Source of the DNA: Candidatus Hadarchaeum sp.
GTDB lineage: Archaea; Hadarchaeota; Hadarchaeia; Hadarchaeales; Hadarchaeaceae
Direction: 5' to 3'
Assembly: GCF_038871235.1 (NCBI RefSeq)
Contig: NZ_JAVZIN010000005.1
Coordinates: 1 to 64,000 of the forward strand
Length of the DNA stretch: 64,000 nt
Shown: piece after piece, positions 4,150 to 23,403 of the stretch
How the letters are laid out: each line of letters begins with the position of its first letter
Numbering within the stretch: the first letter of the stretch is position 1
Made by a program: the position numbers and the translations under genes
The notes under the pieces: generated by a model
Database searches by the model: none
Seen by the model: only the letters and a program-made list of their open reading frames with translations
Told to the model about the DNA's origin: nothing

Positions 4150-4190
4150 GGAATCTCAAGCCCTGAAAAGAATTTTTTCTCACTTTCCCG

Positions 4191-5879: not shown

Positions 5880-5891
5880 CTTACTACCTCA

Positions 5892-6257: not shown

Positions 6258-6269
6258 AATACCACCCCC

Positions 6270-6509: not shown

Positions 6510-6771
6510 CGTCCCCTTGAAATTATGCCCCTGTTATATTATAAAGTTATCACTGAAAATCGATTCGTTCTTAAAAAAACGATTAAAATTCTTCAAATCA
6601 CTACCGTCACTGCGGTGGAAATCTCCATTGTTCTGATCAATACAAAAACATTCAAAAAGAGATTTGACCTTGGATCATTTTTCATCAGCTGAAACTACAG
6701 CTGGTGGTTTTGACTCTCAGAAATTAAAAAACGTATATAGAAAGCCGACCAACGCCTTTTAAGGGAGACCT

Positions 6772-7332: not shown

Positions 7333-7337
7333 GGAAG

Positions 7338-7898: not shown

Positions 7899-7901
7899 AA
7901 A

Positions 7902-9095
7902 ATGCAGCTCCCAGAGTATAAACCGAGGAGCGTGCGCGAGCTCCTGACCGAGATGAAGGACACTTCTGACCTCATGGTGGACCTTGCTTACGCAGCCTTA
8001 CTCTACGAAAGCAAGGAGTTAGCCAATCTCGTCCACCAGCTGGAGTCTAAGATGGATGAGCTGATGTACACCATAAGGATCATGGCCGCCGTAGCGGCCA
8101 GGAATGTCAAGGAAGCCCATAAGATAACCGGAATACTGCAGGTGGCCAGCTCCGCCGAGGCCATCTCTAATGCCACCGGCGACATGGCCGACCTGATCAG
8201 CATGAAGATGGGCATTCATCCGGTGATAAAGGATGCCCTGCGCGCCGCTGATGAGAAAATAGTTAAGCTAAAGATCTCTCCTGGGTCAAATTTGGACGGT
8301 AAATCTCTACGCGAGATCAAACTGCCATCTAGTATAGGCGTCTGGGTACTGGCTATCAAAAGAAATGGGGAATGGGTGGCTCCAATAAGGAAGGACGCAC
8401 AGCTTCAAGCTGAGGATGAGCTGGTGGTGAAGGGTCCACTTTACGGGATAAGAATCATTCATGAAATGGCCGGAGCAAAATTCGAACCTTTCACCGCCGA
8501 AACTAGGCTGAAAAAGCTTCGTAACGAGATGGCCAAGATGCGTGACTTGAGCGACATCGCCGTGGACTTAGCCTACTCCTCGCTCATGCTGGGCTCGACG
8601 GAAGTTGCGGAGGAAGTCAGGGAGATAGAGGAAGCCTTCAACAAGTTTAACTATCAAACTTGGCTGGATACCTTAAAGATCGCTGCGGAAGAGAAGAAAA
8701 ACATCGCCAAGTTAAACAGCGTCCTCCAGATGGCGAGATATATGGAATCAATAACCGATGCAGCCGATTCCATTGTTGATGTCGTCATCAGAAAAATAGA
8801 GCTTCACCCGGTCTTCGCTAAGGCGCTCTCTGAATCTCTAGAAAAAATCTGTCGGGTAAAAATAGCTGCCGGTTCAAGGTTTGCGGGTAAAACGCTGGAA
8901 AAACTGAACCTCTGGGGCACCATTGGCGTCTACGTGCTGGTGATAAAGAGAGGCAATAAGCACATTATCACACCTGGTGGCAACGTTAAGCTCAAGGCCG
9001 ACGACATTGTGACTGTGCGCGGGTCTTTTGAGGGGATTGAAAAGTTCCAGAAGGAGGCCTGTACCATATGCGAACTATCTGGTGCAACGACATAG
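7902..9095 (+). CDS. PhoU / TrkA-C (RCK-C) tandem-repeat regulatory protein
   Basis: Two repeats of EMKD.S.LMVDLAY plus a TrkA-C domain; typical partner of archaeal MgtE pairs. Confidence 0.8.
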   Translation: MQLPEYKPRSVRELLTEMKDTSDLMVDLAYAALLYESKELANLVHQLESKMDELMYTIRIMAAVAARNVKEAHKITGILQVASSAEAISNATGDMADLISMKMGIHPVIKDALRAADEKIVKLKISPGSNLDGKSLREIKLPSSIGVWVLAIKRNGEWVAPIRKDAQLQAEDELVVKGPLYGIRIIHEMAGAKFEPFTAETRLKKLRNEMAKMRDLSDIAVDLAYSSLMLGSTEVAEEVREIEEAFNKFNYQTWLDTLKIAAEEKKNIAKLNSVLQMARYMESITDAADSIVDVVIRKIELHPVFAKALSESLEKICRVKIAAGSRFAGKTLEKLNLWGTIGVYVLVIKRGNKHIITPGGNVKLKADDIVTVRGSFEGIEKFQKEACTICELSGATT

Positions 9096-9370
9096 AGGAC
9101 CTGTTGAGCATCGCCAGAAACCAAGGCTGGCTCTTTTACTACCACCATCAAGGCAAACACTATTACTACCTCTATGTAGGTTCGGAACGAGAGATACTCT
9201 GCCTTGCCATCGAGGCCAAGGAAAAGCTGGCAGGCAAATACGTCACCATTGATGATGACGGAAACATCGTGACTTCCAACAAACCCATCATGCCAGCTTG
9301 CTCCAGAATCGTGGGCGTGGCCAAGGACGAGGAATTTGAGAAGCTCTTGGAGTTCCTTCGACCCAGCTAG
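9068..9370 (+). CDS. Hypothetical protein
   Basis: 100-aa ORF overlapping the upstream stop and abutting cgi121. Confidence 0.55.
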   Translation: MRTIWCNDIEDLLSIARNQGWLFYYHHQGKHYYYLYVGSEREILCLAIEAKEKLAGKYVTIDDDGNIVTSNKPIMPACSRIVGVAKDEEFEKLLEFLRPS

Positions 9371-9937
9371 CTATTTCTCCAACGCAAGCAGAGCGATGCG
9401 CTCCAGCACTATGCTCTGAATCGGGGCCAGTTCAGCTTCTCGGGCAATCGAGAAGGCTCTCCGGATCTCAGGGATTTTTTCCGACTTCATCTCCATTAGG
9501 GAATTATCCCAAATTGCGCCGAGATCCTTAAAAATTTTCAATATCGCTTTTCTCACTTGTGAAGCCGAACTGCCGACCGAAACAAGCGCCAAATCATTTC
9601 TGCCGCTGCGGACACCCATCTTCTCAAAGGCGCGGTAGATCTGACGTTCAGCGGCTACCCAGCAGATGAGTTCTATGGCAAGGGAACTGGCAAAGCCACG
9701 CCCGCTCTCAAAGGCGATAATGGCCAAGCGCGAGGCGTGGACGAGATGCTCCACCCCGGCAACCCGCAGGGAGTTGAAGGCTTGGGTGACCGTCCCCACT
9801 TCAGCGTCCGTCTTGGCCAGCCTGCGAACAAATCCTTCCACGCTGTCCACATTGAAAGTCCCTGAAGCCAAGCCAAGAACCCGAACACCAAAGGAACCCC
9901 TGATTCTGTAAACCATGACCCCTCGCGGAAGGCTCAT
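9371..9937 (-). CDS. cgi121: KEOPS subunit Cgi121
   Basis: VAG..HL, SLAIE, AAERQI..A.EKMG, LERIAL. Confidence 0.85.
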   Translation of the reverse strand: MSLPRGVMVYRIRGSFGVRVLGLASGTFNVDSVEGFVRRLAKTDAEVGTVTQAFNSLRVAGVEHLVHASRLAIIAFESGRGFASSLAIELICWVAAERQIYRAFEKMGVRSGRNDLALVSVGSSASQVRKAILKIFKDLGAIWDNSLMEMKSEKIPEIRRAFSIAREAELAPIQSIVLERIALLALEK

Positions 9938-9969
9938 AAGTCTTCGCCTCTAGATATTCCACGATTATA

Positions 9970-10677
9970 ATGCGGCCCGCGGCTTATAAGATGAGAATAG
10001 AGGACGTTGTGCTAGGTCAGTATATTCGCTCTCCCGATGGCACACAGCCGAGCTACCTTCTGACCCCGTGGGGAGAACAAGTCACCAGAGTTCGGGTGAT
10101 GGGAACCGTAGTCGACAAGTTCATCAGAGAAGATCAGGGCTATGCGACATTGAGAATTGACGATGGGAGCGAAACCATCAGCCTCAGAGCTTGGCAGGAG
10201 ACAGCCAAGGAGCTTGACAAATTCAACTTGGGAGAAATCATCGACGTCGTGGGCAGGGTCAGGGAATTCAACGGTGAAATTTACCTCGTCCCCGAACTGC
10301 TTATCCGCGTCGAAGACCCCAACTGGGAACTAGTTAGGGAACTTGAGATAATTGCAATGAGAAGAGAGGCCCTCGCCGCCGGGGTAAAGCCAAAGTTCGT
10401 CAAACAGGAGCCAAAAGAGCTGAATATAACCGCGCCTGCGGAGATTGCTGAAACCGCGGAGATTGAAGAAGAGCCGCTTCCCGTAGTACCCGACGAACTC
10501 AAGAAAAAAGTGGCCATCGCCATCGAGAAGCTTGACACGGGATCTGGGGTGGACCCAATCAAGATAGCCAATGAACTGAACCTGAGCTTGGCCCAGATAA
10601 ACGACGCCCTCAGAGTCATGTTCGTCGAAGGTGATGTATTTGAACCCGCAACCGGTAAGTTCAGACTGGCGAGGTGA
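9970..10677 (+). CDS. RPA32-like OB-fold protein with C-terminal winged helix
   Basis: RVRVMGTVVDKF, IDDGSETI, DVVGRVREF; C-terminal GDVFEP..GKFR. Confidence 0.85.
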   Translation: MRPAAYKMRIEDVVLGQYIRSPDGTQPSYLLTPWGEQVTRVRVMGTVVDKFIREDQGYATLRIDDGSETISLRAWQETAKELDKFNLGEIIDVVGRVREFNGEIYLVPELLIRVEDPNWELVRELEIIAMRREALAAGVKPKFVKQEPKELNITAPAEIAETAEIEEEPLPVVPDELKKKVAIAIEKLDTGSGVDPIKIANELNLSLAQINDALRVMFVEGDVFEPATGKFRLAR

Positions 10678-10681
10678 AGGA

Positions 10682-11092
10682 ATGGAAGAGGACTATGAAA
10701 AGCTACTGGAAAGGGCAATCGAGCAAATACCCAAAACTGTCTTCGAGAGTTCCCGTTTCCAGATACCTGAGGCTGACATCACCACGGTAGGTAATCGAAC
10801 CATCCTCAGGAATTTCAAGACCATTGCCACGGCCTTCAACAGGGAGCCCGAGCATCTGATGAAGTATCTCCTCAGGGAACTCGGTGCCGCCGGTGACATT
10901 CAGGGGGCACAAGCGGTGTTCCAAGGAAAGTTCTCAGCCGTTACGGTTCAGGACAGGATTCGCCGCTATGCTGAAGAGTTTGTACTCTGCAAGGAATGCG
11001 GAAAGCCTGATACTAGATTGGAAAAAAGAGAGAGGGTGTATGTCCTGAGGTGTGAGGCCTGCGGGGCGCGTAACCCAGTCAGGGGAGTGTGA
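10682..11092 (+). CDS. eif2b: Translation initiation factor 2 beta subunit
   Basis: YEKLLERA, RF.IP, NR.PEHL.KYL.RELG, CKECGKPDT, CEACGA. Confidence 0.95.
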   Translation: MEEDYEKLLERAIEQIPKTVFESSRFQIPEADITTVGNRTILRNFKTIATAFNREPEHLMKYLLRELGAAGDIQGAQAVFQGKFSAVTVQDRIRRYAEEFVLCKECGKPDTRLEKRERVYVLRCEACGARNPVRGV

Positions 11093-11385
11093 GCCTGCCC
11101 TTATTGAAGATAATTCAAACGCAGGGTGAAAACTTGGTCATCATCTGCGACCGCGAGCTTCTGGGAAAAAAATTCAAAGAGGGAAAATTCCAGATCGAGG
11201 TCAAGGAATCATTCTATTCTGGAAGAGAAGCCACCGTTGATGAGTGCATCCAAGCCCTGCGTAATGCGACCATCGCCAATATGTTGGGCTCAATAGTTAA
11301 CCACGCGATTGAAGCCGGAATTGTCGACAAAAATAACGTCCTCAGAATAGCTGGAGTACCCCACGCTCAGCTAGTCAGGCTCTGA
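11089..11385 (+). CDS. DUF424 family protein
   Basis: ICDRELLGK.F, FY.G, ATIAN..G, GVPHAQ. Confidence 0.85.
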   Translation: MSLPLLKIIQTQGENLVIICDRELLGKKFKEGKFQIEVKESFYSGREATVDECIQALRNATIANMLGSIVNHAIEAGIVDKNNVLRIAGVPHAQLVRL

Positions 11386-11391
11386 ACTGGG

Positions 11392-12180
11392 TCAATAAAC
11401 TATTACGCTCCTGACGCTGGGGAGTTTTCTCAGCGCCTCGATGATCTCTCCCCTCACCGGCTCATCGGTGATTATGGTCAGCTTTGGCTGGGGCACGAAG
11501 TTGGGATCATCGGCCACGGACTGCCTGATGCTGAGGCCGAATTTGGCAATAACTCCCGTAACTTCCTTCAATATTCCTGGCCTCGTGGCATCTTCAGGTA
11601 TGATCTCTATCACGCCCAGACCTAACTGCTGTGCAAACCCCTTGAGATAGGCAATTGGCTCTAGATTCTCAAAGATTTCGCGAAGCTTGGGGTCGCTGAG
11701 TATACGGTGAGCAGTGAAATCAACTACCCTTCTGTCAACACCCGCCTCCTTGGCTATCTGGACCGCAGGAATTCTGATACTGCCACAAGCAATAGTGCCA
11801 TCCTCCATAACTCTGAGTCCGTACTTAAACATCACCTTGGCCACACTCATCTGGGCTGGATAGTCCCGGAAAGCCTGCTGAACCCGGTTCCAGACCCCAA
11901 CACCTCCCCAACGCAATCTCTCCTCCCCGACCATCTGGGCCATGACCAGCCTCATCACGCTCTCGATAAAATCAGGGTCTACATCCAATTCTTGGGCAAG
12001 TTTGCGGGCTCGGTCAATCACATGGCGTTCTCGAACTTCATCCTTGATCTCAGCCCCGAGCTTCTTCTTCAACGCGACGATGTCCTCTGAGAGTCTGAGC
12101 CTTTCCGCGAGTAGCTTAATCAGTTTCTCGTCTATCTCATCTATCTTGCGCCGTATTTCTTTCAGATTATCCCCACCCAT
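11392..12180 (-). CDS. Chorismate mutase (AroQ) fused to an ACT-domain amino-acid regulator
   Basis: N-term LKEIRRKIDEID...RERHV; C-term IAKEAGVDRRVV HTH-like segment and ACT-like SIRQ...DDP...L. Confidence 0.8.
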   Translation of the reverse strand: MGGDNLKEIRRKIDEIDEKLIKLLAERLRLSEDIVALKKKLGAEIKDEVRERHVIDRARKLAQELDVDPDFIESVMRLVMAQMVGEERLRWGGVGVWNRVQQAFRDYPAQMSVAKVMFKYGLRVMEDGTIACGSIRIPAVQIAKEAGVDRRVVDFTAHRILSDPKLREIFENLEPIAYLKGFAQQLGLGVIEIIPEDATRPGILKEVTGVIAKFGLSIRQSVADDPNFVPQPKLTIITDEPVRGEIIEALRKLPSVRSVIVY

Positions 12181-13100
12181 CAAACTCCCTCCACCCTCGC
12201 ACCTTCAATCGCAGGTTTGGTGATCAATATCCTGCCCCGCCACGCGCGCCAGGCCTTAACTATATCCACAACTTTATCCGGCTCCGCCACGGCCACGGTG
12301 GCAGAGCCGGTGCCGGTTAATCCGGCGGCTACGGCACCCTTGGAGATGGCCTCGATAGCTATCATTGGATCATGGCCGAGCGCAGTAGAGTACAGCAGAC
12401 CATTGATGGTCAGGGACTTCCAGATTTCACCCCGCAGGGCCATTCGGTGGACTGATTGAACTGCTCGGTAGATATGGCGTAGATCTTCCGGACTCACCTT
12501 GGACGTGTAAAACTTGACCGGAGGAACGTGAACCACCACGACTAGTCTTGGATCCACCTTAAATCTCTTCAAAATTTTGCGCTTCAAATTATCGGTGATG
12601 ACCCCGCCACCGTAGAAGGATGCTGCCGCGTCATCGAGAGCACCGGTCACCGTGACTCCAGCCTCAAAGGCAGATTCAATCCCGATTTCAAGCACCTGTT
12701 CTGGTTTGGGCCTCTGGTCGCAGGCTGCAAAGGTAGCTAGGACCACCGCGTTAGCCGCCGCGCTGCTACTTGACAATCCCACCGCGATAGGGATCTCGGA
12801 GGTAGTTTCAACAACAGCACCGTATTTTTTCATTCCCAAATTTTCTAGAACTCTTCGAACACAGATCTCAATCAGCCTCGGGCTTTCTTTCCTCTGACCC
12901 AGTATTCGACCCGAGATCTTTCCCCCCTTGGTCAGTCTAACCCTCGCCTGAACTCTTAAATCAACGCCAAAAGCTGCCCCCTTGCCAGCTGCGATGGCAT
13001 TGACCACCGTGGCGGAAGCACAGGCGGAAGCGATGCCAACACCTCTTCCCAAACCAGACCCCCTTTCAACTAAACCTGTCCGGATTAATTTTTCCCGCAC
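12180..13100 (-). CDS. aroK: Archaeal shikimate kinase (GHMP)
   Basis: [39 protein letters not shown]. Confidence 0.9.
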
Positions 13101-14163
13101 GAATCATGTGATCAGCCAGAACCAAGGCCAACATCGCCTCAGCCACCGGCACTATCCTAGGGCATATGTTTGGGTCAAAGCGCCCCTCAAGGCGTATCTC
13201 GGTCCCTTTCATTTTTGCTAGATCAACCGTTCGCTGTGGTTTCGATATCGATGGCGTAGGCTTAACCATCAGACGAGCCACAATCGGCATTCCAGTTGAA
13301 ATTCCACCCAGAATTCCGCCCGCCCTGTTAGTGGCTGTGAATATCTTGCCCTCTCTTATAACTATGGCATCGTTTGCCTCTGAGCCTCGCATCCGCGCAA
13401 GCTTATCCCCCTCTCCGATGATAACCGCCTTTACTGAGCCGATTGACATCAACGCCCCAGCTATCTCGGCATCAAGTTTCCCAAACACGGGCTCTCCCAA
13501 CCCTGCCGGTACCCCATGCGCCTGAACCTCAACAACGCCTCCGGTACTGTCACCTTCTGCGGCGGCCTCCAGAATTGCCTTCATCATCATCTCCGCCTTT
13601 TCAGGTACAGCACACCTAATCGGATTTTTCTCCACGTTTCTTCGGATCTCCTCGAGCGTTGGCTGTCTATCTATAGAAACGCCCGCCGCCTCCACGGTGT
13701 GGGCCAAGATCTCCACACCATGTGCAGCCAAAAGTTTCTTTGCCACGGCCCCGGCCGCAACCCTGCCTATCGTCTCCCTAGCGGAGCTTCTTCCGCCACC
13801 GCGATAATCAACATGGCCATACTTTAACCAGTAGGTGAGATCTGCGTGCCCTGGGCGAGGCTTTGTCCTAATTCTCTCATATGGTTTAGAATCAACGTCA
13901 AGATTACGGACGACCATACAGATGGGGGCTCCAGTAGTTTTTCCCTTAAAGACACCGGAGAGAATTTCCACCTTATCTTTCTCCTTCCGCGGCGTGGTCA
14001 AAATTGACTGCCCAGGACGACGCCGATCCAGTTCCCGCTGAACATCGGCCTCGCTCAGCGGCATCCCTGCCGGAACCCCGTCGACAACCACTCCGATTGC
14101 CGAGCCATGGCTTTCCCCGAAGGTGGTTATCTTAAAAATCTTGCCGAAGGTGTTTCCCCCCAT
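13066..14163 (-). CDS. aroC: Chorismate synthase
   Basis: [31 protein letters not shown]. Confidence 0.97.
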
Positions 14164-14257
14164 CACCACACCAGAGGAATCCTCGATTTCAATCTATAAA
14201 TCACCATCTATAATCGAGCCCTCAAAACCGCAAATTGTCGTGGTTCGTGGAGATAAT

Positions 14258-15184
14258 TCACAGGGCGTGCGGACACTTCTCTGTTCTCTTAAAGTAGGGC
14301 TCACGTCTGCCCACCGCCTCGACGAATGATTTTTTTGCCCCGTCAACATCCCCGGCCCGCACCCATGACAGAATATCGACCAAATTGTCATTTCTCATCA
14401 GACATGGTTTGAGGTAACCGTCGGGCGTCAACCTCAATCGGTGACAGTGAGCGCAGAACCTTGTGTTGTGCATCGGGCGTACTACTTCAACCTCCCCATT
14501 AGGTAATAGGTATCTCTTGCGCGACTGCATTAGCCGTCTCGTCCTGACCGCGATCGCCTTGGCGGCAAGCTTTCGTTCAATCTCCTCAAGGGCCAAGTGA
14601 TGCTCTTGGAAATCCTCTCCATTCAAATCCACCAGCTCTATGAGTTGGAGTATCATACCTCGTTCACCAGCAAAATCAATCATCCTGTCGATCTCATCCT
14701 CATTTATCCCCTTGAGCAAAACCATATTCAATTTGATGGGGACAAGTCTAGCCTCCAGTGCAGCGTTTATCCCGTCGAGGACCTCCTCCAGTGACCCGTT
14801 CTGAGTGATCTTGGCAAATTTCTCGGCGTCGAGCGTGTCCAAGCTTATGTTGACCCGGTCCAGTCCTGCCTCCGCAAGTTCATGCGCCCTCTCTGAAAGC
14901 AAGGCACCATTGGTCGTCATGGAAATCTCTCTGATCCCAGGCTTAGCTGAAGCAGCAACGATATCCACTATATCATCGCGCAGGAGGGGCTCCCCGCCGG
15001 TGATCTTGATCTTCCCAACGCCCAACTCAGAGGCTATCTTAACTATGCTACCAATTTCATCGGGGGACATCTCTCGAGAACTCTCAGGACACCCCTCGCG
15101 ATGACAGTAAAAACAGTTGAAATTACAGTTCTCAGTTACTGAAATCCTGAGCCCGTTAACGTAACGGCCATATCTATCTATCAA
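14258..15184 (-). CDS. moaA: GTP 3',8-cyclase MoaA
   Basis: LRISVT.NCNFNCFYC, TGGEPL, FCAHCHRLRLT.DG.LKPCL. Confidence 0.95.
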   Translation of the reverse strand: MIDRYGRYVNGLRISVTENCNFNCFYCHREGCPESSREMSPDEIGSIVKIASELGVGKIKITGGEPLLRDDIVDIVAASAKPGIREISMTTNGALLSERAHELAEAGLDRVNISLDTLDAEKFAKITQNGSLEEVLDGINAALEARLVPIKLNMVLLKGINEDEIDRMIDFAGERGMILQLIELVDLNGEDFQEHHLALEEIERKLAAKAIAVRTRRLMQSRKRYLLPNGEVEVVRPMHNTRFCAHCHRLRLTPDGYLKPCLMRNDNLVDILSWVRAGDVDGAKKSFVEAVGRREPYFKRTEKCPHAL

Positions 15185-15908
15185 GATTAGTCACCCTCAT
15201 CTCAATGATTTTTCCCCGAGAATCCTTCAGTGAACTTACCATTCCTTTAACCACGCCAGCCAACAACTCCTGAACAAATGGTTTGAGTGGGATTTGCTTG
15301 TCGTCTATTTTTAAAATGACTCTGCCCGTCAAGGCTTCGCATTCCTCCCATCGTTTCTTTCCGGAGACAACTGCCACAGCAAATTTCTCACAACTATCGA
15401 ATCCACATCGCCTGCAGTTGAGAGCAAAAAGTGGTGGAAAGGACCTCTGCTCAATGAGATCCACTATTTCCTTAACCTGCTTGAAATCGAACGATGGCAC
15501 CGTGGGCCACCGGAAACCAACACAGGCTATGGTAAGCCCATCCACGAGTTTTTCGGCCTCGGCTTGGTTTCTTGCCACAACTACCTTCGCCAATCCACGA
15601 AAAGTTTTGAAACCTTCCACAACTACGAAATCGACCCCCGATAAACTTTTCAATATTTCTTCAAGTCCGGCCGAACGTTTCTCAATTCTAGCTATCTCAC
15701 TTGGAGCTAGGGAAATCACCAGCTCTGCACCAGCCTTGGCGTGTGCCCAGGTATCCTTACCTGTTTGGTCGATAGTAAAGTGCTTCTCAGGAATGTGTTT
15801 AACGGTGCCCACACGATAACCGCGTTTGACCAGTTCCCTCACAATCGAAACCACTAATTTTGTCTTTCCAGCACCGTGAAATCCAGTCACCGAAAGAACT
15901 TTATACAA
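15174..15908 (-). CDS. mobB: MobB with C-terminal Fe-S domain
   Basis: G..GAGKT, VKH, D..GKDTW.H..AGA, VEGFK, LNCRRCG..SC. Confidence 0.9.
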   Translation of the reverse strand: MYKVLSVTGFHGAGKTKLVVSIVRELVKRGYRVGTVKHIPEKHFTIDQTGKDTWAHAKAGAELVISLAPSEIARIEKRSAGLEEILKSLSGVDFVVVEGFKTFRGLAKVVVARNQAEAEKLVDGLTIACVGFRWPTVPSFDFKQVKEIVDLIEQRSFPPLFALNCRRCGFDSCEKFAVAVVSGKKRWEECEALTGRVILKIDDKQIPLKPFVQELLAGVVKGMVSSLKDSRGKIIEMRVTNLDR

Positions 15909-17142
15909 GACTGCACCCCCTAAAAAGCTTCACTTCCACACTCTCCCCTTCCTCGACAATTTCCCGCTCAAGCGGCACTTCAATGTAACCATCTGCAGTT
16001 GAGAGCGACGTTATCGCACCTGATCCTTTGAGAATGGGCTCCGCTAACTTCTGACCATCTTTTTCCACCAATTTTACCGGAACAAACTCCTGCCTCCCCC
16101 TAGCTGAAAGCAACTTTGTTGCCAGCTTTGCCTGAACAACGCTTTGCCGGCTCCGTGGAATACCTGAAAGCTCGTGGAGATAATCAGCAACCAACTGATC
16201 AAATACCATTAGCGCGGACACGGGATATCCGGGCAGACCGAAGATGGGCTTGTTTTTAACCACGGCGATAAAGGTCGGTTTGCCCGGCTTCATGGCAATA
16301 CCATGAACGATCACACCTGGTCTGCCAAGGGTGGCTATGGCTCGAGGTGTTAGATCACCTGTGCCAACGGACGAACCACCGGATATCAGAACTACATCGG
16401 CGATTTTAATGCCATTACTGACCGCAGCCTTTATGGCTGAGAATCTGTCTGAAATAGTGCCTAGAAAAACTGGTTCGCCGCCGCAGGCCCTCACCGACTC
16501 AGAGAGCGATGTCGCGTTAACATCGTAGATTTTTCCCTTCCTGAGCTTTGCTCCCGGCTCCACCAACTCAGACCCTGTGGAGATCACCGCCACCTTTGGC
16601 CTGTCCTTAACCATAATTTTTTTGACACCTATCGCTGCCAAAACCGCAACGTCCAGAAGATTAAGCTGCTTTAAACGTCCGATGACAATCTGGCCTTTCT
16701 TTATGTCCGATCCGCGGCTAGTAACGTTTTCCCAAGGAGACACTGACCGATAAATATTCACCGACCCATCTTCAACCACAGCATATTCCGACATTACCAC
16801 CGCGTCAGCTCCCCGCGGAAGTGGGGCGCCTGTCGTTATCTCTACGCTTGATCCCGGCCGGAGATGCATTCGGGGCCAAGTTCCGGCCAGAACCCTGCCA
16901 ACCAACTTAAGTTTAATAGGAGAGCTTTCAGTCGCCCCAAATGTATCTGAGGCTTTTACCGCGAAACCATCATAGGTCGCCCTGTCGAATGGTGGAACAT
17001 CTATTTTTGATTTTATCTCTGTTGAGCTAACCCTGCCTATTGCATGAGAAAATGAGACATAAACATCGCGTGGTTTAGGTTTCCAAAATTTATCCAGCGC
17101 AGCTTTCGCTTCTTCCAGAGAAATTACGCCAAGTTCGGCCAT
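15901..17142 (-). CDS. moeA: Molybdopterin molybdenumtransferase MoeA
   Basis: PPFDR...DGFA, I.TGA..P.GADAVVM.E, STGSEL, SGGSS.G..D, KPGKP, GLPGYP. Confidence 0.95.
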   Translation of the reverse strand: MAELGVISLEEAKAALDKFWKPKPRDVYVSFSHAIGRVSSTEIKSKIDVPPFDRATYDGFAVKASDTFGATESSPIKLKLVGRVLAGTWPRMHLRPGSSVEITTGAPLPRGADAVVMSEYAVVEDGSVNIYRSVSPWENVTSRGSDIKKGQIVIGRLKQLNLLDVAVLAAIGVKKIMVKDRPKVAVISTGSELVEPGAKLRKGKIYDVNATSLSESVRACGGEPVFLGTISDRFSAIKAAVSNGIKIADVVLISGGSSVGTGDLTPRAIATLGRPGVIVHGIAMKPGKPTFIAVVKNKPIFGLPGYPVSALMVFDQLVADYLHELSGIPRSRQSVVQAKLATKLLSARGRQEFVPVKLVEKDGQKLAEPILKGSGAITSLSTADGYIEVPLEREIVEEGESVEVKLFRGCSLV

Positions 17143-17267
17143 CTCATCGCATACTATTAAACAACAAAGTTTATTATTTCACTTTTGGTTAAACAAATAT
17201 GGCTAACAAAAGAGGGAACAACAACGCCTTAAAAAAATTTTTATAACTTGATTGTAAAGTAAACATC

Positions 17268-18875
17268 ATGACTGAAAGGGTTCAAAAGGATTCGTCGTAC
17301 CTAAATGGTATGTCAATTTCTGGAACGAGAACCCGAGTTCGGGATGTAAGTCCGACAAGTGGAATGTGTCCTATCTGTATTAAAGAATGCCCCGTTCTCT
17401 GCGAGATCAGTCTTTCGGCATTTCGCGGCAGAGAGGTTCTCTACCCATCTCAAAGTTATTTTGGACAAAGCACGGCCGCATCATTAAAGAACTATGATCT
17501 GGATTGGTCACATTTTAACATCCTTTCTAGACTCAGGGGCGCTGAGGGTATATCTCCTGATCCAGACGTTGCTTTATTTGAAAACGTGAACATCGAATCA
17601 GAACTGGGGGGCATCCCCCTCAAAGTGCCACTTGTTACCGGCGCATTTGGTTCCACACCCGTGGCAAAACTTAATTGGGATGCTCTGGCCGTGGGGGCCG
17701 CCCTTTCTGGTGTGATACTAGTTATTGGAGAAAATGTCTGCGGGGTGGATCCGGAATCTAAATACGCCAATGGCAAGGTAACCTACTCCAAAGAACTCGA
17801 ATACAGGGTTAAGAAGTTCAGAGAATTTTGGGACGGAAAATATGGTGATATTTCTGTACAAACTAATGTGGAGGATCAACGAGGGGGCGTTGATATTTAT
17901 GCGATTTCTAAGCTCGAGGTCAACATTATCGAGAGAAAGTGGGGACAAGGGGCTAAGGCCATTGGTGGCGAAATACGGATAACCTCACTTGAGCGAGCCA
18001 TCGCCCTGAAAAAGCGTGGATACGTGGTGTTGCCTGACCCAGAAGATAAAGCTGTCCAAGAAGCGTTTAAAGCCGGGGTTTTCAAGAGCTTTGAGCGCCA
18101 TAGCCGGGTTGGAATGCCGACGGAGAGGGGCTTCGTGGAAGACGTTGAATGGCTGAGGGATCAAGGGGCAAAGAAAGTTACTTTGAAAACAGGAGCCTAT
18201 CGACCCATCGATACTGCATGGACTATGAAAGTTGCATCGGAAGCAAGGGTAGATTATGTAACCTTTGATGGGGCTGGTGGTGGCACGGGCATGAGCCCTG
18301 TGCCGATGATGAACGAAATGAGCACACCAACGGTCTATCTTGAAGCTCAAGTTCTTAAGTGCGCTCAAATACTCAAGAAAAAAGGCCGGTACGTCCCTGA
18401 CATAAGCATGGCAGGTGGTTTCATCAGCGAGGGACAAATTTTCAAAAGTATTGCAATGAGCAATTTCGGGCAAGGACCATTCATAAAAGCCATCACCATG
18501 GCCAGAGCTCCGCTAACAGCAGTGATGAAATCTTCTTATTTTGTGGAACTGGCTAAGGAAAACAAATTGCCACGTGATTTTGCGGAACAATATGGAAGCA
18601 CCCCGGACAAATTTTTCCTAGCGGCATCAAAAATAAAGGAGCTACACGGCGATAGATTCAGCAATATACCGTTCGCTGCCATAGGCCTTTACACATATTT
18701 ATGCGATCGAATCGGTGTCGGACTAAAGCAACTGCTTGCCGGCGCGAGAAAGTGGAATCTCATGTTAATCAACAGAAGCGACCTTGCGGCATTAACTGAA
18801 CGGGCCTCTAGGGTTACTGGAATACCGCTAATGGACGAGACCGAAGCCGATGTGTTTGAGCAGATATTGGAATAG
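17268..18875 (+). CDS. FMN-binding glutamate synthase family protein (archaeal stand-alone)
   Basis: SGMCPIC...C...CE, KWGQGAK.IGGE, DGAGGGTGMSP, MAGG. Confidence 0.85.
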   Translation: MTERVQKDSSYLNGMSISGTRTRVRDVSPTSGMCPICIKECPVLCEISLSAFRGREVLYPSQSYFGQSTAASLKNYDLDWSHFNILSRLRGAEGISPDPDVALFENVNIESELGGIPLKVPLVTGAFGSTPVAKLNWDALAVGAALSGVILVIGENVCGVDPESKYANGKVTYSKELEYRVKKFREFWDGKYGDISVQTNVEDQRGGVDIYAISKLEVNIIERKWGQGAKAIGGEIRITSLERAIALKKRGYVVLPDPEDKAVQEAFKAGVFKSFERHSRVGMPTERGFVEDVEWLRDQGAKKVTLKTGAYRPIDTAWTMKVASEARVDYVTFDGAGGGTGMSPVPMMNEMSTPTVYLEAQVLKCAQILKKKGRYVPDISMAGGFISEGQIFKSIAMSNFGQGPFIKAITMARAPLTAVMKSSYFVELAKENKLPRDFAEQYGSTPDKFFLAASKIKELHGDRFSNIPFAAIGLYTYLCDRIGVGLKQLLAGARKWNLMLINRSDLAALTERASRVTGIPLMDETEADVFEQILE

Positions 18876-18979
18876 TCGTCACAAAAGTTATATTCCATCG
18901 GTGGGCACAAAAGACCAAGAAAAGAAAATTGACTAAAGCTTTTATAAAAACAATTCTCCAAAAATAACAACGGGGAAAA

Positions 18980-19225
18980 ATGGTTGAGGCTTTTATTATG
19001 ATAAAAATCGGTGTTGGCGAGTATCAGAACTTAGTCTTAACTATCAAAGAGAAATTGGAAAAAATGCCGGAGGTAGTCGAGGCCTGCCCTGTGTTCGGAC
19101 GATACGATATGGTGGCAAGAGTCAAGGTAAAAACTTTGGCCGAGCTGACGCGCTTAGTTGGGGATAAAATCAGATCAATTGATGGTGTGACAAACACCGA
19201 AACATTTGTAGTACACGAGGGATAA
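18980..19225 (+). CDS. Stand-alone Lrp/AsnC ligand-binding (RAM) domain protein
   Basis: AFIMI, V.EA..VFGRYDMVARV, IRSIDGVT.TET; no HTH. Confidence 0.85.
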   Translation: MVEAFIMIKIGVGEYQNLVLTIKEKLEKMPEVVEACPVFGRYDMVARVKVKTLAELTRLVGDKIRSIDGVTNTETFVVHEG

Positions 19226-19611
19226 AAGATCCGGTTTGCGGCCGGAAACAGCTAATCTATTGATGCCTCAAGGTCCCTGATGACTACCTAAGCAGCTGCT
19301 GGCCAAACCGTGATTGAGGCCAACCGTTTGATCTCATCACTAGCAGGAGTCCGATCGTAACTCAATGTGCTTTGCGCCGATTGGTGCATCTACAGCGAGT
19401 GCTATTTCGAAAAATCAGAACTAATTAGGGTTGTTGCTTTCTGACCTGCGATTGGGAAAGGCTCCGAACTTTTTTGGTATAACAAATTATGAGGTTGACC
19501 ATCAGGCTGTGGCAAAAGGAGCTTCATAATCTTGATGAGATTAATATGTTAATAGCGTCAAAGTCTTCTAAAGGTTTATAAAGAAGAACAATCATCATCT
19601 TTGGGAAAAAC

Positions 19612-20862
19612 ATGCCCTCAAATTCAAACCCCTTCAGGGCTGCCATAGACCAACTCGAAAGAGTTGGAAAATTACTAAATATAGACCCTTCCACTATAGA
19701 AAGGTTGAAGCATCCACGCCGAGAAATTATCGTATCCGTTCCAATCCGCATGGATAACGGGGAAATAAAAGTCTTTACCGGCTATAGGATCCAGCATTGC
19801 CATGCCCGAGGACCATTCAAGGGAGGGATAAGATACCACCCTAAGGTCGACCAAGAGGAAGTTAAAGCTCTGGCCATGTGGATGACTTGGAAATGCGCGG
19901 TTGTGGACTTACCCTACGGTGGCGCAAAGGGCGGCGTCGCGGTGGACGCGAAAAAACTATCAAAAGGAGAACTGGAGCGATTAACCCGACGTTATACTGC
20001 AATGCTTCTGGACGATATCGGTCCCTATAAAGACGTCCCGGCACCTGATATGTATACAGATGCTCAAACGATGGCCTGGATAATGGACACTTACAGCCAG
20101 TTTAAGGGACATTTAGTTCCAGAAGTTGTTACTGGGAAACCGATAGAGCTTGGAGGTTCTGAAGGGAGAAGAGAAGCCACTGGGCGGGGTGCGGCAATCT
20201 GTGCCAGAGAAGCCGCCAAACAGCTCGGAATGAATATGAAAGGTCTGACAGTCGCAGTTCAGGGTTTCGGAAATGTAGGCCAGTGGGCAGCAAAAATCCT
20301 CGAGGAAATGGGTTGCAAAATAATAGCTCTGAGCGACTCTACCTGTGGAATCTATGATCCAAAGGGATTCGACGTGCGCGCTGTAATGGAGCATAAGGAG
20401 AAAACCGGCAAACTTCGTGGTTTCGCTCATGGAGAAGAGATCACTAATGAAGAGCTTCTGCAACTTGATTGCGATATTCTAGTTCCCGCGGCGATGGAAA
20501 ACGCGATAACTGAATCAAACGCACACAATATAAAGGCAAAAATTATCTGCGAGGGGGCAAACGGTCCGAGCACGCCCAAGGCAAGAGAAATATTGTACAA
20601 TGAAGGAGTGCACGTTATTCCAGATATCCTCGCCAATGCTGGTGGTGTTACCGTCAGCTACTTTGAATGGTTACAAAACCTTCACCGTGAACACTGGAGT
20701 GAGAGTGTCGTCAACCAGAAGCTAGAAAATTATCTAGTGAAAGCCTACCATGATGTCGTCAAGACAGCAGAAGAATACAGGGTCGACTTAGCAACCGGGG
20801 CCTATGTGCTTGGGATCAAAAGAGTTGTAGATGCCCAAGAAAGTCTCGGCTTATTCCCGTAA
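19612..20862 (+). CDS. gdhA: Glutamate dehydrogenase
   Basis: GPFKGGIRYH, MTWKCA, GGAKGG, DVPAPD, VTGKP, VQGFGNVG, EGANGP. Confidence 0.97.
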   Translation: MPSNSNPFRAAIDQLERVGKLLNIDPSTIERLKHPRREIIVSVPIRMDNGEIKVFTGYRIQHCHARGPFKGGIRYHPKVDQEEVKALAMWMTWKCAVVDLPYGGAKGGVAVDAKKLSKGELERLTRRYTAMLLDDIGPYKDVPAPDMYTDAQTMAWIMDTYSQFKGHLVPEVVTGKPIELGGSEGRREATGRGAAICAREAAKQLGMNMKGLTVAVQGFGNVGQWAAKILEEMGCKIIALSDSTCGIYDPKGFDVRAVMEHKEKTGKLRGFAHGEEITNEELLQLDCDILVPAAMENAITESNAHNIKAKIICEGANGPSTPKAREILYNEGVHVIPDILANAGGVTVSYFEWLQNLHREHWSESVVNQKLENYLVKAYHDVVKTAEEYRVDLATGAYVLGIKRVVDAQESLGLFP

Positions 20863-20971
20863 GACCCAAATCCAGAAAAACATTTAATTGTTGAGCCGAA
20901 CCAAATGTGATCGTCTAGATTTTACCTTGATTATAGATGAAAGATCACCGTTAAAAGCGCATTTTAATTTT

Positions 20972-20986
20972 CGAAAAATTTATTAC
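20972..20986 (+). promoter_or_regulatory. BRE/TATA-like promoter for ncRNA copy 2
   Basis: CGAAAAA-TTTATTAC, with the TATA-like element about 24-31 nt upstream of the RNA 5' stem at 21010. Confidence 0.6.
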
Positions 20987-21009
20987 CAAAAAATTTGTTA
21001 ACTGCAATC

Positions 21010-21209
21010 GCGGGGATAAGCCGACAGAACAGGCTGAACTCCACCTACGGGTGCGGGGGATCCACGGAAAAACTCAGCGCAGCTGGGGGAGGCCGTGGAT
21101 AAGGTGCACAGCGGTGTGCACCGAAGCATGGATGTCGGATAAAGATCACGAAACGAAAGCGCGGCAGGGTAACCGGGCCGCCGCGGAGTAGTTTCGTGAT
21201 CGTCCCCGC
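21010..21209 (+). ncRNA. Large structured ncRNA of unrecognised family, copy 2 (200 nt)
   Basis: Terminal stem GCGGGGAU/GUCCCCGC, 11-bp GAUCACGAAAC/GUUUCGUGAUC, and the same helix order and junction nucleotides as 3906-4139. Confidence 0.85.
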
Positions 21210-21329
21210 ACAAAAATTATTCCAAATTATCACACGAAGGCCTATTGTAACCTCATCAAATTTCTCTGGCTCATTATGCACGATCGCGAATTGAAATTAT
21301 TTAAATGAGTATGGTGGAACTATCCCTAG

Positions 21330-22670
21330 CTACAGCGCCGGCAACAAAAACTTGTGCTCCCAGTCGCTTACGTGTGCCCGGTAACTCTCCCACTCCTTTT
21401 CCTTGACATAGATAAAGTGCTTGAAAAGGTGTTCACCCAGCGCCTCCCTTATCAACTCACTCCGACGCATGTAATCCAGAGCCTGACCCAAGTTCTCTGG
21501 CAACGATTCTATACCCAAGGCCTCGCGATCCTCGGAGCTCATGTGGTAGATATCCTTCTCCACCGGCTCAGGCGGCTCTATCTTATCCTCAATTCCCTTC
21601 AACCCTGCTGCCAACATCACCGTGAACTGAAGATAAGGGTTGCCCGCCGGATCTGGGTTGCGAAGCTCGATACGTGTATGGGATCCTCTCCCCGCCGGAA
21701 CGCGGATATAAGCGCTCCTGTTTCTGTTCGCCCAAGAGATGTAAACCGGGGCCTCGTAACCTGGCACCAGCCTCTTGTAGGAGTTTACTGTTGAAGCCAA
21801 GATGGCGCAAGTCTCCTTGGCATACTTCAGGAGCCCACCGATGAAGTAAAGTGCATACTTGCTCAGTTTGTAGGATCCCTTTGGGTCGTAAAATACATTT
21901 TTTCCCTCAGGGGTCATAAGCGACTGGTGGACGTGCATCCCTGAGCCATTGACGCCGTAGATGGGCTTGGGCATGAAGGTGGCGTAAAGGCCGTGGCGAT
22001 AGGCGATGTTCTTGGTGACGTACTTCATCATGGCCACTCGGTCGGCTGAAGTCATGGCATCAGCGTACATGAGATCTATCTCGTGCTGCCCGGGAGCAAC
22101 TTCATGGTGCGAGGCCTCCACATCAAAACCCATCAGATTAAGATAGTTAACTATCTCCTTCCTGATGAGATCACCCCTATCTCTCATCAGGTCAAAGTAT
22201 CCTCCTGAGTCCGAAGGTCTAGTCGTTGGCAAACCCTGCTCATCTAACATCAAGAAGAAGAACTCATACTCCGGAGCCGTGTTGAAGGTCCAGCCTTTTT
22301 TCTTGGCCTTCTCTAGCTGTCTTTTTAATGCCGCCCGCGGATCCCCCTCAAAGGGATTGCCCTCATGATCATAAACATCGCAAACCATCCGCGCCGTCTT
22401 AAGAGTGTCCTGCAACCAAGGAATAATCACAAAAGTTTCCGTATCTGGCATCAGGCGCATGTCAGATTCCTCGATGGTGGCATAGCCTAAAACCGACGAT
22501 CCATCGAAGAAGACCCCTTCATCCAGAGCCTTTTCAATCTTGGTGGCGGGAATGGTGACGTTTTTAACCGTGCCAAGAATATCGGTGAACTGCATCTGGA
22601 TGAACTTTATGCCCTCCCTCTTCACTGTTTGAATTATCTCGGCCTTGGACATCCTCTCAACCCCACTCAT
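21330..22670 (-). CDS. glnA: Glutamine synthetase type I
   Basis: FTDI.G..K, FDGSS, HHEVAPGQHEI, TFMPKP, NGSGMHVH, NSYKRLVPGYEAP, RIELR.PD. Confidence 0.97.
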   Translation of the reverse strand: MSGVERMSKAEIIQTVKREGIKFIQMQFTDILGTVKNVTIPATKIEKALDEGVFFDGSSVLGYATIEESDMRLMPDTETFVIIPWLQDTLKTARMVCDVYDHEGNPFEGDPRAALKRQLEKAKKKGWTFNTAPEYEFFFLMLDEQGLPTTRPSDSGGYFDLMRDRGDLIRKEIVNYLNLMGFDVEASHHEVAPGQHEIDLMYADAMTSADRVAMMKYVTKNIAYRHGLYATFMPKPIYGVNGSGMHVHQSLMTPEGKNVFYDPKGSYKLSKYALYFIGGLLKYAKETCAILASTVNSYKRLVPGYEAPVYISWANRNRSAYIRVPAGRGSHTRIELRNPDPAGNPYLQFTVMLAAGLKGIEDKIEPPEPVEKDIYHMSSEDREALGIESLPENLGQALDYMRRSELIREALGEHLFKHFIYVKEKEWESYRAHVSDWEHKFLLPAL

Positions 22671-22725
22671 CTCCTTGTCCTCGGTATTTATAACTGGTGA
22701 TTCTGTATAATGGAAAATACACTTC

Positions 22726-23403
22726 TCAACCCTCATTTTCCGGAGTAATCGCCCGGCCGCCGTATAACTCTGTAATGGTCAGCTTCAGGGCACTATTCTC
22801 TCGGTAAATGCGGAAGGAAAACATCTCCGCAGAATAATTTTCATTGAGCTCCTTCTCCAATGCCGCGATGTCGGCTGCCCGCTGGGCCCAGCTGTAGGCT
22901 AGGTTGGCCAGATAGAGCATCCTCCCGTAGCGCGGAACTACGCCGGCATCCAGCTTGACTCCGTAGGCCTTGGCTCCCGAAACGTGGTTGAAGCTCGCCT
23001 CTAGGTAACCATAGGCGCGGAGTCCACCATCGGGAAGCCACTCAATCTGCAGCGAGTTTTCATCGCTTAGCGGCACGTAGATGTTTTCGAAATTGGAGTA
23101 CGACCAGCCCGCGGCAATGCGCTGGTTAAAGTAGCTGCGCAACCGGGATTCCACCTCTGCCTTAGATCCGGCAAACTTACCCACCTCAAACATGGCCGCT
23201 GCAATCGCTGATCTGAGCGAATCGTTCAACTCCGCCTCAATGACCAGAGCCACGGCCCTGGTGGTATCAACGGCCATTCTTTCCTGTAAAACCTCTATCT
23301 GACGTGTATAGCTGGATTCGAATGTGTTCAAGGCAGCTATCCCAGCAAGGATCACAAACACAGTGAATATCGCCAGCAGCTCAGCCGATCCCAGTTCGTC
23401 CAT
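22726..23403 (-). CDS. Putative pilin / class III signal peptide protein
   Basis: MDELG|SAELLAIF hydrophobic N-terminus; last gene of pilus operon. Confidence 0.6.
   Translation of the reverse strand: MDELGSAELLAIFTVFVILAGIAALNTFESSYTRQIEVLQERMAVDTTRAVALVIEAELNDSLRSAIAAAMFEVGKFAGSKAEVESRLRSYFNQRIAAGWSYSNFENIYVPLSDENSLQIEWLPDGGLRAYGYLEASFNHVSGAKAYGVKLDAGVVPRYGRMLYLANLAYSWAQRAADIAALEKELNENYSAEMFSFRIYRENSALKLTITELYGGRAITPENEG

Follow-up and report, generated by a model that had tools for sequence, protein, structure and literature searches.

Positions 21010-21209 (plus strand) of the genomic stretch considered here, namely, the first 64,000 nucleotides (nt) of contig NZ_JAVZIN010000005.1 of Candidatus Hadarchaeum sp. 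(assembly GCF_038871235.1; hereafter, the window), comprise a short-form gene of a new, apparently Hadarchaeota-restricted family of structured noncoding RNA. This sequence, termed copy 2, had been proposed in a first-pass annotation, made from the letters of the window alone, to encode a second paralogue of an RNA found at 3906-4139 (copy 1). Copy 2 offers a full-length match to a covariance model of the family, the helix joining the two RNA ends (P1), the domain closed by helix P2, the long arm P7 and the invariant junctions, the features by which family membership is recognized. That this is a genuine family of structured RNA genes is, in our estimation, close to certain and, by every test made, the family is new; newness of mechanism is a separate matter.

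The letters of 21010-21209 match those transcribed in the first-pass annotation. When folded as plus-strand RNA, copy 2 yielded a minimum free energy (MFE) of -106.5 kcal/mol, as compared to a mean of -69.6 kcal/mol (standard deviation 4.6 kcal/mol) for 200 dinucleotide-preserving shuffles of the same sequence, none of which folded as well (z -8.0; 0/200). The minus strand folded more weakly (-87.5 kcal/mol), such that G-U pairs favour the plus strand. Copy 1 (3896-4142) gave an MFE of -122.3 kcal/mol (z -11.2); scores no better than those of shuffled sequence, which would have spoken against a structured RNA, were thus obtained for neither copy. The region of copy 2 is, moreover, a G+C island (0.60), with the spacers around being at 0.35-0.45. 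The parts of copy 2, all located by the MFE fold unless otherwise indicated, are as follows:

20972-20985, plus strand: BRE/TATA-like promoter (B recognition element plus TATA box), CGAAAAATTTATTA; seen in sequence and conserved in orthologues
21010-21209, plus strand: copy 2, a 200-nt short-form family member; MFE z -8.0, covariance models R1 and R2 (see below)
21010-21017, plus strand: P1, 5' strand, GCGGGGAU, pairing with 21202-21209
21021-21138, plus strand: P2-closed domain; MFE fold, with the same helices covarying in the family consensus
21021-21026/21133-21138, plus strand: P2
21030-21035/21125-21130, plus strand: P3
21039-21057, plus strand: UACG hairpin
21060-21100, plus strand: P5, with a 5x5 loop, AAAAA/GGAGG
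21103-21122, plus strand: P6
21144-21201, plus strand: the last arm, P7 (helix 21144-21154/21191-21201)
21155-21159/21186-21190, plus strand: conserved internal loop of P7, GAAAG/GAGUA
21202-21209, plus strand: P1, 3' strand, GUCCCCGC, followed by ACAAAAAUU, with no oligo-T; MFE fold and sequence

The MFE folds of copies 1 and 2, computed independently, present the same helix order. Once the two were aligned with MAFFT, 45 pairs were common to both folds; of these, 26 are identical, 4 differ in one partner and 15 in both. RNAalifold, applied to the two copies, found 16 of 55 pairs to be compensatory. As such, the proposal that 21010-21209 encodes a second paralogue of the same structured RNA is borne out, together with all of the helices listed for it (GCGGGGAU/GUCCCCGC, CCGACA/UGUCGG, the UACG hairpin, AUCCACGG/CCGUGGAU, GGUGCACA/UGUGCACC and GAUCACGAAAC/GUUUCGUGAUC) and with the BRE/TATA-like element at 20972-20985, which lies at the same distance from the RNA in the five orthologues fetched. 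The first-pass annotation had also described the unpaired linkers as essentially identical in the two copies. This holds for the junctions and internal loops, whereas neither the hairpin loops nor the P7 tip is conserved; in the two-copy alignment, 69 of 110 unpaired ungapped columns and 56 of 90 paired columns are identical, meaning that unpaired positions are no more alike than paired ones.

Two covariance models served to define the family, namely, R1, prepared from the two window copies, and R2, prepared from 32 homologues. Against R1, copy 1 scored 271.4 bits and copy 2 213.7 bits. Copy 2, one of the 32 sequences from which R2 was built, matched model positions 1-229 of R2 at 135.8 bits (E 2.3e-39), with orthologues outside the training set of R2 scoring 103-135 bits. 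A search of the 1.2-Mb, 16-contig genome with R1, in line with the suggestion in the first-pass annotation that further paralogues be sought, revealed a third copy at C8:45464-45695, the next match being at E = 0.27.

Covariation across the family was considered in two alignments. In the first (A5; 97 matches, 84 distinct), 95.9% of the cells form standard pairs, as compared to 77.0% when the 3' partners were shuffled (0 of 500 shuffles being as high) and 35-42% when the partners were slid by 1-3 columns. Changes on both sides were seen at 51 of the 57 pairs, in agreement with the earlier view that selection acts on RNA structure and that the copies are not a DNA repeat. In the second alignment (A6), comprising 76 distinct sequences from metagenomes, none of which had gone into a model, 94.8% of the cells pair and double changes occur at 46 of the 57 pairs, with the corresponding controls giving 76.7% (shuffled; 0/500 as high) and 32-44% (slid by 1-3 columns). 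Both alignments were fitted to the model, which somewhat favours the structure; the slid controls and the independent single-sequence MFE folds nonetheless argue against an alignment artefact. P1 covaries at family alignment columns 1-3/265-267, 8/261, 9/260 and 10/258, and mutual information across the 84 sequences added three further covarying P1 pairs, as well as subfamily signals. The same analysis of mutual information over 84 sequences detected no pseudoknot or other long-range covariation.

In the consensus architecture, a G+C-rich P1 joins the 5' and 3' ends and opens into a three-way junction leading to the P2-closed domain and to the long arm P7. The P2-closed domain holds P3, a small UACG/UAAG hairpin of UNCG type, P5 and P6; the loops of P5 are a symmetric 5x5 one (AAAAA/GRAGG) and a GCGAAAAA one. 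P7 contains a tandem GA/GA loop, as well as a conserved internal loop with GAAA(R) facing GAGUA; the latter fits the loop E/sarcin-ricin consensus (AGUA/GAA). The helices are free to covary, with junctions and internal loops staying nearly invariant. Across the 84 distinct sequences, AAGCC, AAC, GG.GA, A.AAAC, GGAUAAG, GGAAAAAG, GAAAA, GAGUA and GGGUCGAA are at least 90% conserved in all forms. P1 (GCGGGGAU/AUCCCCGC) is itself unusually conserved in sequence for a helix. Family members are some 195-235 nt long.

Two further readings of the conserved loops were entertained and set aside. The bulge and G.A positions required of a K-turn or K-loop, as judged by eye against the consensus, are not present. 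Mimicry of tRNA was suggested by the complementarity of UGGUCGAG in the 14-nt loop of long forms to CUCGACCA and by likenesses to the D-loop, T-loop and acceptor stems of tRNA; this notion was dropped because covariation supports P1 and P7 and not the T-arm-like alternative.

Most members of the family are of a long form of about 229 nt, with copy 1 being a variant of 231-234 nt. Long forms carry, at the tip of P7, a hairpin bearing a nearly invariant 14-nt loop (AAGUGGUCGAGAUU). When targets of this loop were sought in the genome, 6 non-self complementary 11-mers were found, with about 2 being expected by chance, and none stood out. Short forms, that is, copy 2 (200 nt) and several other subfamilies (192-215 nt), all lack the 14-nt-loop hairpin, the P7 tip of copy 2 being short. 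The corresponding parts of copy 1 are:

3850-3861, plus strand: palindrome-like element upstream of copy 1, TGAAATATCTCA; seen in sequence
3870-3884, plus strand: A-rich BRE plus TATA of copy 1, CTTTAAAAA; seen in sequence
3909-4139, plus strand: copy 1, a long-form member; ends from a head-to-tail junction, with the helix being drawable from 3906
4072-4085, plus strand: apical 14-nt loop of the long forms, AAGUGGUCGAGAUU; nearly invariant in these
4140-4149, plus strand: oligo-T terminator of copy 1, TTTTTATTTT; seen in sequence

Orthologues of copy 2 were found in five other genomes of its genus, giving six sequences in all that are 74-97% identical, in which 95.1% of the cells pair and 10 pairs show compensatory changes. 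A near-identical promoter, with variants differing by 1-2 bases, precedes GCGGGG by some 24-26 nt in all six loci, being CGAAAAATTTATTA or CGAAAAATTTAATA in four of the five orthologues fetched and CAGAAAAATTTAATA in that at L110. Since the orthologues keep their pairs by compensatory change and share a promoter, copy 2 can be taken, on the strength of sequence comparison, as a maintained gene rather than a decaying duplicate. None of the six copy-2-type loci presents an oligo-T after P1, and 3'-end formation in copy 2 is accordingly predicted to differ from that of the long forms. In another genus (g8), short and long forms occur in tandem some 90 nt apart (e.g., L044:295-495 and 583-811; L058:1209-1413 and 1501-1729), each being preceded by a TATA-like element, with the palindrome and TATA of the long copy falling inside the spacer.

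As for the distribution of the family, matches to R1 were obtained in 33 of 41 related genomes. Of the 65 class genomes, 51 gave R2 matches, at 1-6 copies each, as did 20 of the 25 that are at least 90% complete with no more than 5% contamination. By taxonomic family, the RNA-positive genomes number 39 of 45 (f1), 6 of 6 (f2), 1 of 1 (f3), 1 of 9 (f4) and 3 of 3 (f5), with a single copy per genome in f2 and f5 and 1-6 copies in f1. In the phylum as a whole, 51 of 66 genomes gave R2 matches, the single genome of the other class having none. Members of genus g15, in which no family RNA was found with R2, have larger genomes.

Beyond the phylum, the search relied on one exact degenerate pattern drawn from the most conserved stretch of the RNA. 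When one genome from each of 185,579 species was scanned, a search in which about 4 chance matches were estimated, 47 matches were obtained, all 47 in metagenome-assembled genomes (MAGs) of Hadarchaeota type. These are titled Hadarchaeota, Hadesarchaea, Hadarchaeales, Hadarchaeum or Hodarchaeaceae, apart from two 'uncultured archaeon' and one 'Methanobacteriota archaeon', and the matches in these three MAGs also fit the family covariance model. Viral contigs gave no match to the same pattern. In metagenomes, at least 120 loci match the pattern, and 78 of the 80 among those listed match R2 at E <= 1e-5. As far as one exact pattern can tell, the RNA family thus seems to be confined to Hadarchaeota. 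Ten of 82 metagenome model matches are cut by a contig end (L135, L144, L152, L166, L167, L173, L190 and L197, as well as L149 and L182). Assemblies often break inside this RNA gene, as would be expected of a conserved sequence present in several copies, such that the copy numbers given per MAG are lower bounds.

When the 64-kb window was compared with Rfam 15 (4,227 families), no family reached its gathering score. At E <= 10, only noise was detected, namely, SpF36 (19.9 bits; threshold 48), sR60 (12; 50) and Vax2os1_2 (13.9; 55), these three weak matches lying in the flanks or being unstructured. The locus of the third copy (L003) likewise gave no Rfam match at E <= 1. Identification as a known element, be it transposon-associated, intron-derived or other, which the first-pass annotation had named as an outcome that would count against its proposal, was hence not encountered. 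The genome has its own RNase P RNA (RF00373; C7:68657-68944, 198 bits), the only other match to that model being at 9.9 bits and elsewhere, and its own 5S rRNA (RF00001; C1:83538-83658, 93.6 bits), while the single match to archaeal signal recognition particle (SRP) RNA (RF01857; C14:14838-15145, 154.7 bits) lies away from the loci considered here. The GAAA/GAGUA loop resembles a loop E or sarcin-ricin motif by consensus only and sits on the opposite strands of its arm. No description of this Hadarchaeota RNA was found in literature searches, as judged by title and abstract; the main text of a 2026 preprint (10.64898/2026.10.21.760802), the supplements to which may list clusters, contains neither 'Hadarchaeo' nor 'Hadesarchaea'.

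Among RNAs closed by a conserved stem formed by their ends, Y RNAs, including bacterial YrlA, likewise comprise small, multi-paralogue RNAs and act as protein-bound scaffolds. The Ro60 (Rsr) partner of such RNAs is defined by the TROVE domain (PF05731), which was found in none of the 65 class genomes and was detected in the Deinococcus and Bacteroides controls, and no Rfam Y RNA model was matched. The orphan bacterial RNAs OLE, GOLLD, ROOL, raiA and, prior to its assignment, HEARO, all found by comparative genomics, share with the Hadarchaeota RNA an intricate structure, invariant junctions, lineage restriction, very high abundance in metatranscriptomes and the lack of a function evident from sequence. 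Unlike these, the RNA described here is archaeal, is found in one phylum as far as searched, is only some 195-235 nt long, has several diverged paralogues per genome and has its ends clamped by a sequence-conserved helix; all five are represented in Rfam, and none of those models is matched. Hgc-type RNAs, reportedly found by Klein, Misulovin and Eddy in 2002 as G+C-rich islands in the A+T-rich intergenic DNA of hyperthermophilic archaea, offer another parallel, given that copy 2 is also a G+C island (0.60 in 0.35-0.45 spacer) with its own promoter in a hot-spring archaeon. The RNA considered here, however, does not match HgcC in Rfam, is larger, contains several junctions and belongs to a different phylum.

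To define gene anatomy, the flanks of long copies with sufficient flanking sequence were compared with random genome positions. A TATA-like element is found in the 50 nt upstream of 82 of 101 long copies, as compared to 9% of random positions, and a palindrome-like element (consensus GGAAATATCTCC) appears some 15 nt further upstream in 60 of 101, as compared to 0.8%. Downstream, a run of at least 4 T occurs within 25 nt of 97 of 103 long copies, as compared to 16% of random positions. The family promoter comprises a BRE/TATA placed some 25 nt ahead of the G with which P1 starts, and oligo-T follows 3 nt after P1 in most copies. Each copy can, on these signals, be predicted to constitute its own transcription unit. 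Within this genome, the palindrome-plus-TATA arrangement is found only at the two long copies (3850-3861 in the window; from 45405 on C8), which points to a dedicated regulator, likely a transcription factor of its own binding at the palindrome (TGAAATATCTCA at copy 1; GGAAATATCTCC in the consensus).

Neighbouring genes were tallied for 188 distinct copies over all fetched loci. Three neighbours recur:

first downstream open reading frame (ORF), same strand: family-B DNA polymerase gene (polB), 33 of 188 copies
divergent upstream: DRG-type GTPase gene (MMR_HSR1 plus TGS), 47 of 188 copies
convergent downstream: gene for a reductase dependent on flavin adenine dinucleotide (FAD), of the geranylgeranyl-reductase type, with its stop codon 4-18 nt (mostly 6-15 nt) past the RNA, 53 of 188 copies

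Genes encoding a transposase, TnpB, IscB, reverse transcriptase, integrase or nuclease are not among the recurrent neighbours. The gap between the RNA and polB measures 10-64 nt (mostly 32-55 nt) in 12 of the 13 cases of a first set and 236 nt in the remaining one. At the polB loci inspected, the spacer contains a TATA-like run, or else the T-run of the terminator sits at TATA distance from the start codon, such that polB need not be co-transcribed with the RNA. In the window, copy 1 lies between a GFO/IDH-type oxidoreductase gene (plus strand) and convergent nifU/nifS (minus strand), and copy 2 between the convergent genes for glutamate dehydrogenase (gdhA; 19612-20862, plus strand) and glutamine synthetase (glnA; 21330-22736, minus strand). 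The position of the short-form RNA between gdhA and glnA is conserved in the genus, within a nitrogen-assimilation neighbourhood (17268-22736) that includes a glutamate-synthase-like gene (17268-18875). Of the options left open in the first-pass annotation, namely, a trans-acting RNA, a cis-regulator and a mobile RNA, a stable RNA acting in trans is favoured by the data.

The polB site of genus g10 presents a separate observation. In two genomes of this genus, G+C-rich elements lie directly upstream of polB (G060, L127:3938-4129, minus strand; G016, L128:1321-1468, plus strand), each closed by the P1 sequence of the family (GGCGGAGGCG.../GGCGGGGAGG...) and preceded by a TATA-like box. What P1 encloses bears no relation to the family, nor is it alike in the two genomes (R2 E > 0.06; no match in Rfam), and the G060 element has no relative in the 65 class genomes. 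Some 60 nt upstream of the polB-site elements, both genomes conserve a hairpin-closed element of about 70 nt (GGGG...CCAAGCUGGCUGGGAC...CCCC; L127:4193-4262, minus strand, and L128:1205-1275, plus strand) that gave no Rfam match at E <= 1. In three RNA-negative genomes (G033, G038 and G065), no G+C-rich element was seen upstream of polB. When other RNAs with the same P1 were sought in the genome of the window, a regular-expression scan returned nothing beyond the copies already known, tRNAs and chance pairings within genes. ARAGORN detected 22 tRNAs, as well as three 'tRNA-???' with odd anticodon loops (C10:2774-2864, C10:43374-43468 and C14:14690-14788), which are probably intron-containing tRNAs; one of these lies 50 nt from the SRP RNA gene.

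Expression was considered by mapping the contigs of four public runs, from habitats labelled 'hot springs metagenome' and 'sediment metagenome', on positions 3500-22000. Two runs are labelled as RNA (X9 and X11) and two are DNA (X2 and X3), although X11, labelled metatranscriptomic, is also flagged 'RNA? (probably DNA)'. The metatranscriptome X9 contains the organism or a near-identical strain, as reflected in pieces of 206-295 nt with 0-1 differences. In X9, the bin containing copy 1 (3500-4116) reached a mean word depth of 40,507, whereas 28 of the 29 other bins were at 0-20 and the adjacent bin, which contains the last bases of copy 1, was at 174. In the DNA runs, the copy-1 bin was at 10.2 (X2) and 0.73 (X3), with the other bins being at about 1-26. 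The long form is, therefore, highly abundant as RNA, as a depth exceeding that of the flanking genes by three to four orders of magnitude indicates an abundant, stable RNA. The X9 bin containing copy 2 (20776-21392) had a depth of 0, a value that is not evidence of silence.

The ends of the RNA could be read from the same data. A 261-nt contig of X11 (depth 39.9) runs from 3944 to 4139 and continues with 3909-3973, forming a head-to-tail joint (4139 to 3909); assuming 31-mers, 261 nt (231 + 30) is the length expected from a 231-nt cycle in such a graph. X9 contains a similar joint (4131 to 3913; depth 386), along with two loose ends at which the 3' end of a homologue (...CCCUGCCAC and ...CCCGCCAU) runs straight into the 5' start. 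No head-to-tail joint was found in the DNA runs X2 and X3. The 5' end of copy 1, G3909, lies 25 nt after the TATA box and, as the same spacing is seen at the third copy, is probably the transcription start. The 3' end, C4139, falls 3 nt past P1, just before the T-run. The loose ends of the two homologues are consistent with the same ends. The joints may reflect either a circular isoform or template switching by reverse transcriptase on an abundant linear RNA, and covalent circularity of the RNA is, in our view, an evenly balanced question.

Circles of archaeal RNase P RNA, SRP RNA, C/D box sRNAs and 5S rRNA are also on record (PMC12558985, citing Danan et al., 2012; Becker et al., 2017). As far as that source describes them, these RNAs share with the Hadarchaeota RNA stand-alone genes, a terminal helix and head-to-tail junction reads. 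The Hadarchaeota RNA, by contrast, is not homologous to them, matches no C/D or H/ACA box model and presents neither a bulge-helix-bulge motif nor, as far as found, a ligase of the Pab1020 family. Derivation as a bulge-helix-bulge circle through EndA and RtcB was discarded on inspection, the 5' site being, in addition, the predicted transcription start.

As to how the RNA acts, we lean, with some reserve, towards an end-sealed, trans-acting scaffold of a ribonucleoprotein (RNP). The RNA would act in trans as a very stable and very abundant particle, with P1 clamping its ends and with some molecules appearing to be joined head to tail. The invariant single-stranded modules, borne on exchangeable helices, may offer docking sites for a protein partner or for another RNA. 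The paralogues present a common core and a differing P7 tip, the 14-nt loop belonging to long forms only, which suggests one shared core partner and different peripheral contacts.

Several points weigh against such a scaffold. No partner protein or target came out of the analysis. With R2, the RNA was not found in 14 of the 65 class genomes, among them every one of the 7 g15 genomes and 3 of the 4 from g10; it is, therefore, not universally required in the phylum, an ill fit to a universal housekeeping role. Contig depths are a poor measure of expression and sum related strains and, indeed, the X9 depth at 5 positions is mostly of letters other than those of copy 1, such that close relatives dominate. 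The X9 junction contig, at a depth of 386 as compared to tens of thousands for the RNA body, fits template switching. No bulge-helix-bulge motif was met at the ends upon inspection; the junction sites of copy 1 (3908|3909 and 4139|4140) fall within, or at one end of, an uninterrupted helix free of 3-nt bulges. As a circularizing enzyme, a Pab1020-type RNA ligase (TIGR01209) was not found in this 94.75%-complete genome, a search that did not extend to RtcB and EndA. The 33 copies found directly upstream of polB on the same strand leave room for a role in cis there. Finally, copy 2 itself has neither the oligo-T after P1 nor the upstream palindrome.

Of the other explanations, one holds that the RNA is a ribozyme that processes or circularizes itself or acts on other RNA, the invariant junctions serving as active site. 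The RNA has the size, the several junctions and the near-invariant unpaired positions that typify large ribozymes; the joint ends of copy 1 are precise, the 5' one being the initial G of P1 and the 3' one lying 3 nt beyond that helix, with the loose ends of the homologues fitting; and neither of the alternatives for ring closure, bulge-helix-bulge splicing or a Pab1020-type ligase, found support. Yet, no ribozyme family in Rfam 15 was matched, mutual information revealed no pseudoknot or long-range covariation, the junction reads are possibly artefacts and amount to a small share of the X9 depth, and a 5' end at the predicted transcription start requires no 5' cleavage. We consider a ribozyme to be improbable.

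No more probable, and no less, is that the RNA assembles by itself into a protein-free architecture, in the manner of ROOL, GOLLD or OLE, or serves as a decoy or sponge. Large ornate bacterial RNAs have been seen by cryo-electron microscopy as RNA-only complexes (bioRxiv 10.1101/2024.12.08.627333). The abundance in the metatranscriptome, the A-rich conserved loops that could make A-minor contacts, the lineage restriction and the lack of a conserved protein neighbour would all suit such an assembly. At some 230 nt, however, the RNA is well below the size of GOLLD, and it bears no similarity in sequence or model to the ROOL, GOLLD or OLE families, all of which are in Rfam.

Slightly less credible still is a cis-acting leader, namely, a riboswitch-like sensor or processing signal that ancestrally served polB, with stand-alone copies being secondary. 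Where the RNA precedes polB, polB is always the first downstream ORF; the link is kept, with differing genes upstream, in f2, f5 and a portion of f1, and the single-copy families f2 and f5 carry the RNA mostly at the polB locus. Riboswitch aptamers, furthermore, likewise have stems that covary around invariant junction nucleotides, with a P1 as the closing helix. Against this stand the 53 copies that are followed by a convergent gene and the two window copies, which lie between convergent genes, such that those copies have nothing to regulate in cis. Most copies, unlike riboswitches, have no same-strand downstream gene, with only 33 of 188 preceding polB; a terminator is found regardless of context, with oligo-T directly after P1 in 97 of 103 long copies; the inspected polB loci can have a promoter of their own; and the RNA is an abundant, discrete species at a level far above neighbouring mRNA. 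Both window copies were, therefore, not assigned to riboswitches or other cis leaders.

Least probable of all is the RNA of a mobile or selfish element spread through genomes (resembling a miniature inverted-repeat transposable element, a retron or an omega-RNA), for while the 1-6 copies per genome at varied loci, P1 as a terminal inverted repeat, the metagenome contigs that break inside the gene (10 of 82 matches) and the unrelated inserts with the same P1 ends at the polB site of two g10 genomes could be so read, the recurrent neighbours (DRG-type GTPase, FAD reductase, PolB and metabolic genes) include no mobility gene, neither window copy shows a target-site duplication, the loci keep their synteny between genera and between families instead of being polymorphic, the stems evolve by compensation, as is not required of a DNA-level repeat, and viral contigs gave no match. 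A TnpB/IscB omega-RNA or other transposon-associated RNA was likewise rejected, with no such gene being a neighbour and both RNA ends being locked in P1.

A bolder reading, which we hold to be doubtful and still well ahead of the explanations just considered, is that the RNA, once transcribed from its dedicated promoter, has its ends joined into a phylum-specific, covalently closed, heat-stable circle of some 230 nt that would serve as the catalytic or architectural core of a new cellular machine, be it a ribozyme or an RNP on the scale of RNase P or SRP, with paralogues carrying exchangeable modules, namely, a long or a short P7 tip. Were this so, an RNA of about 230 nt would be among the most abundant transcripts of the cell and, in the two g10 genomes, the same P1 clamp would hold unrelated cargo RNAs at the polB site.

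The covariation support obtained here equals that of curated Rfam families. Hadarchaeota, an uncultured phylum, have reduced genomes of some 1-1.3 Mb, in which it is costly to set aside about 470 bp of spacer for an RNA gene. To our knowledge, new classes of large, intricately folded RNA are rare, with very few being known in archaea beyond rRNA, tRNA, RNase P, SRP and guide RNAs. In earlier cases, RNAs of such profile proved to act as ribozymes, as cores of RNPs or as RNA-only assemblies. The family is, as such, a candidate for structure determination and, with its covariance models, its ends, its promoter with an upstream palindrome and its long and short forms, offers a culture-free handle on the biology of Hadarchaeota.

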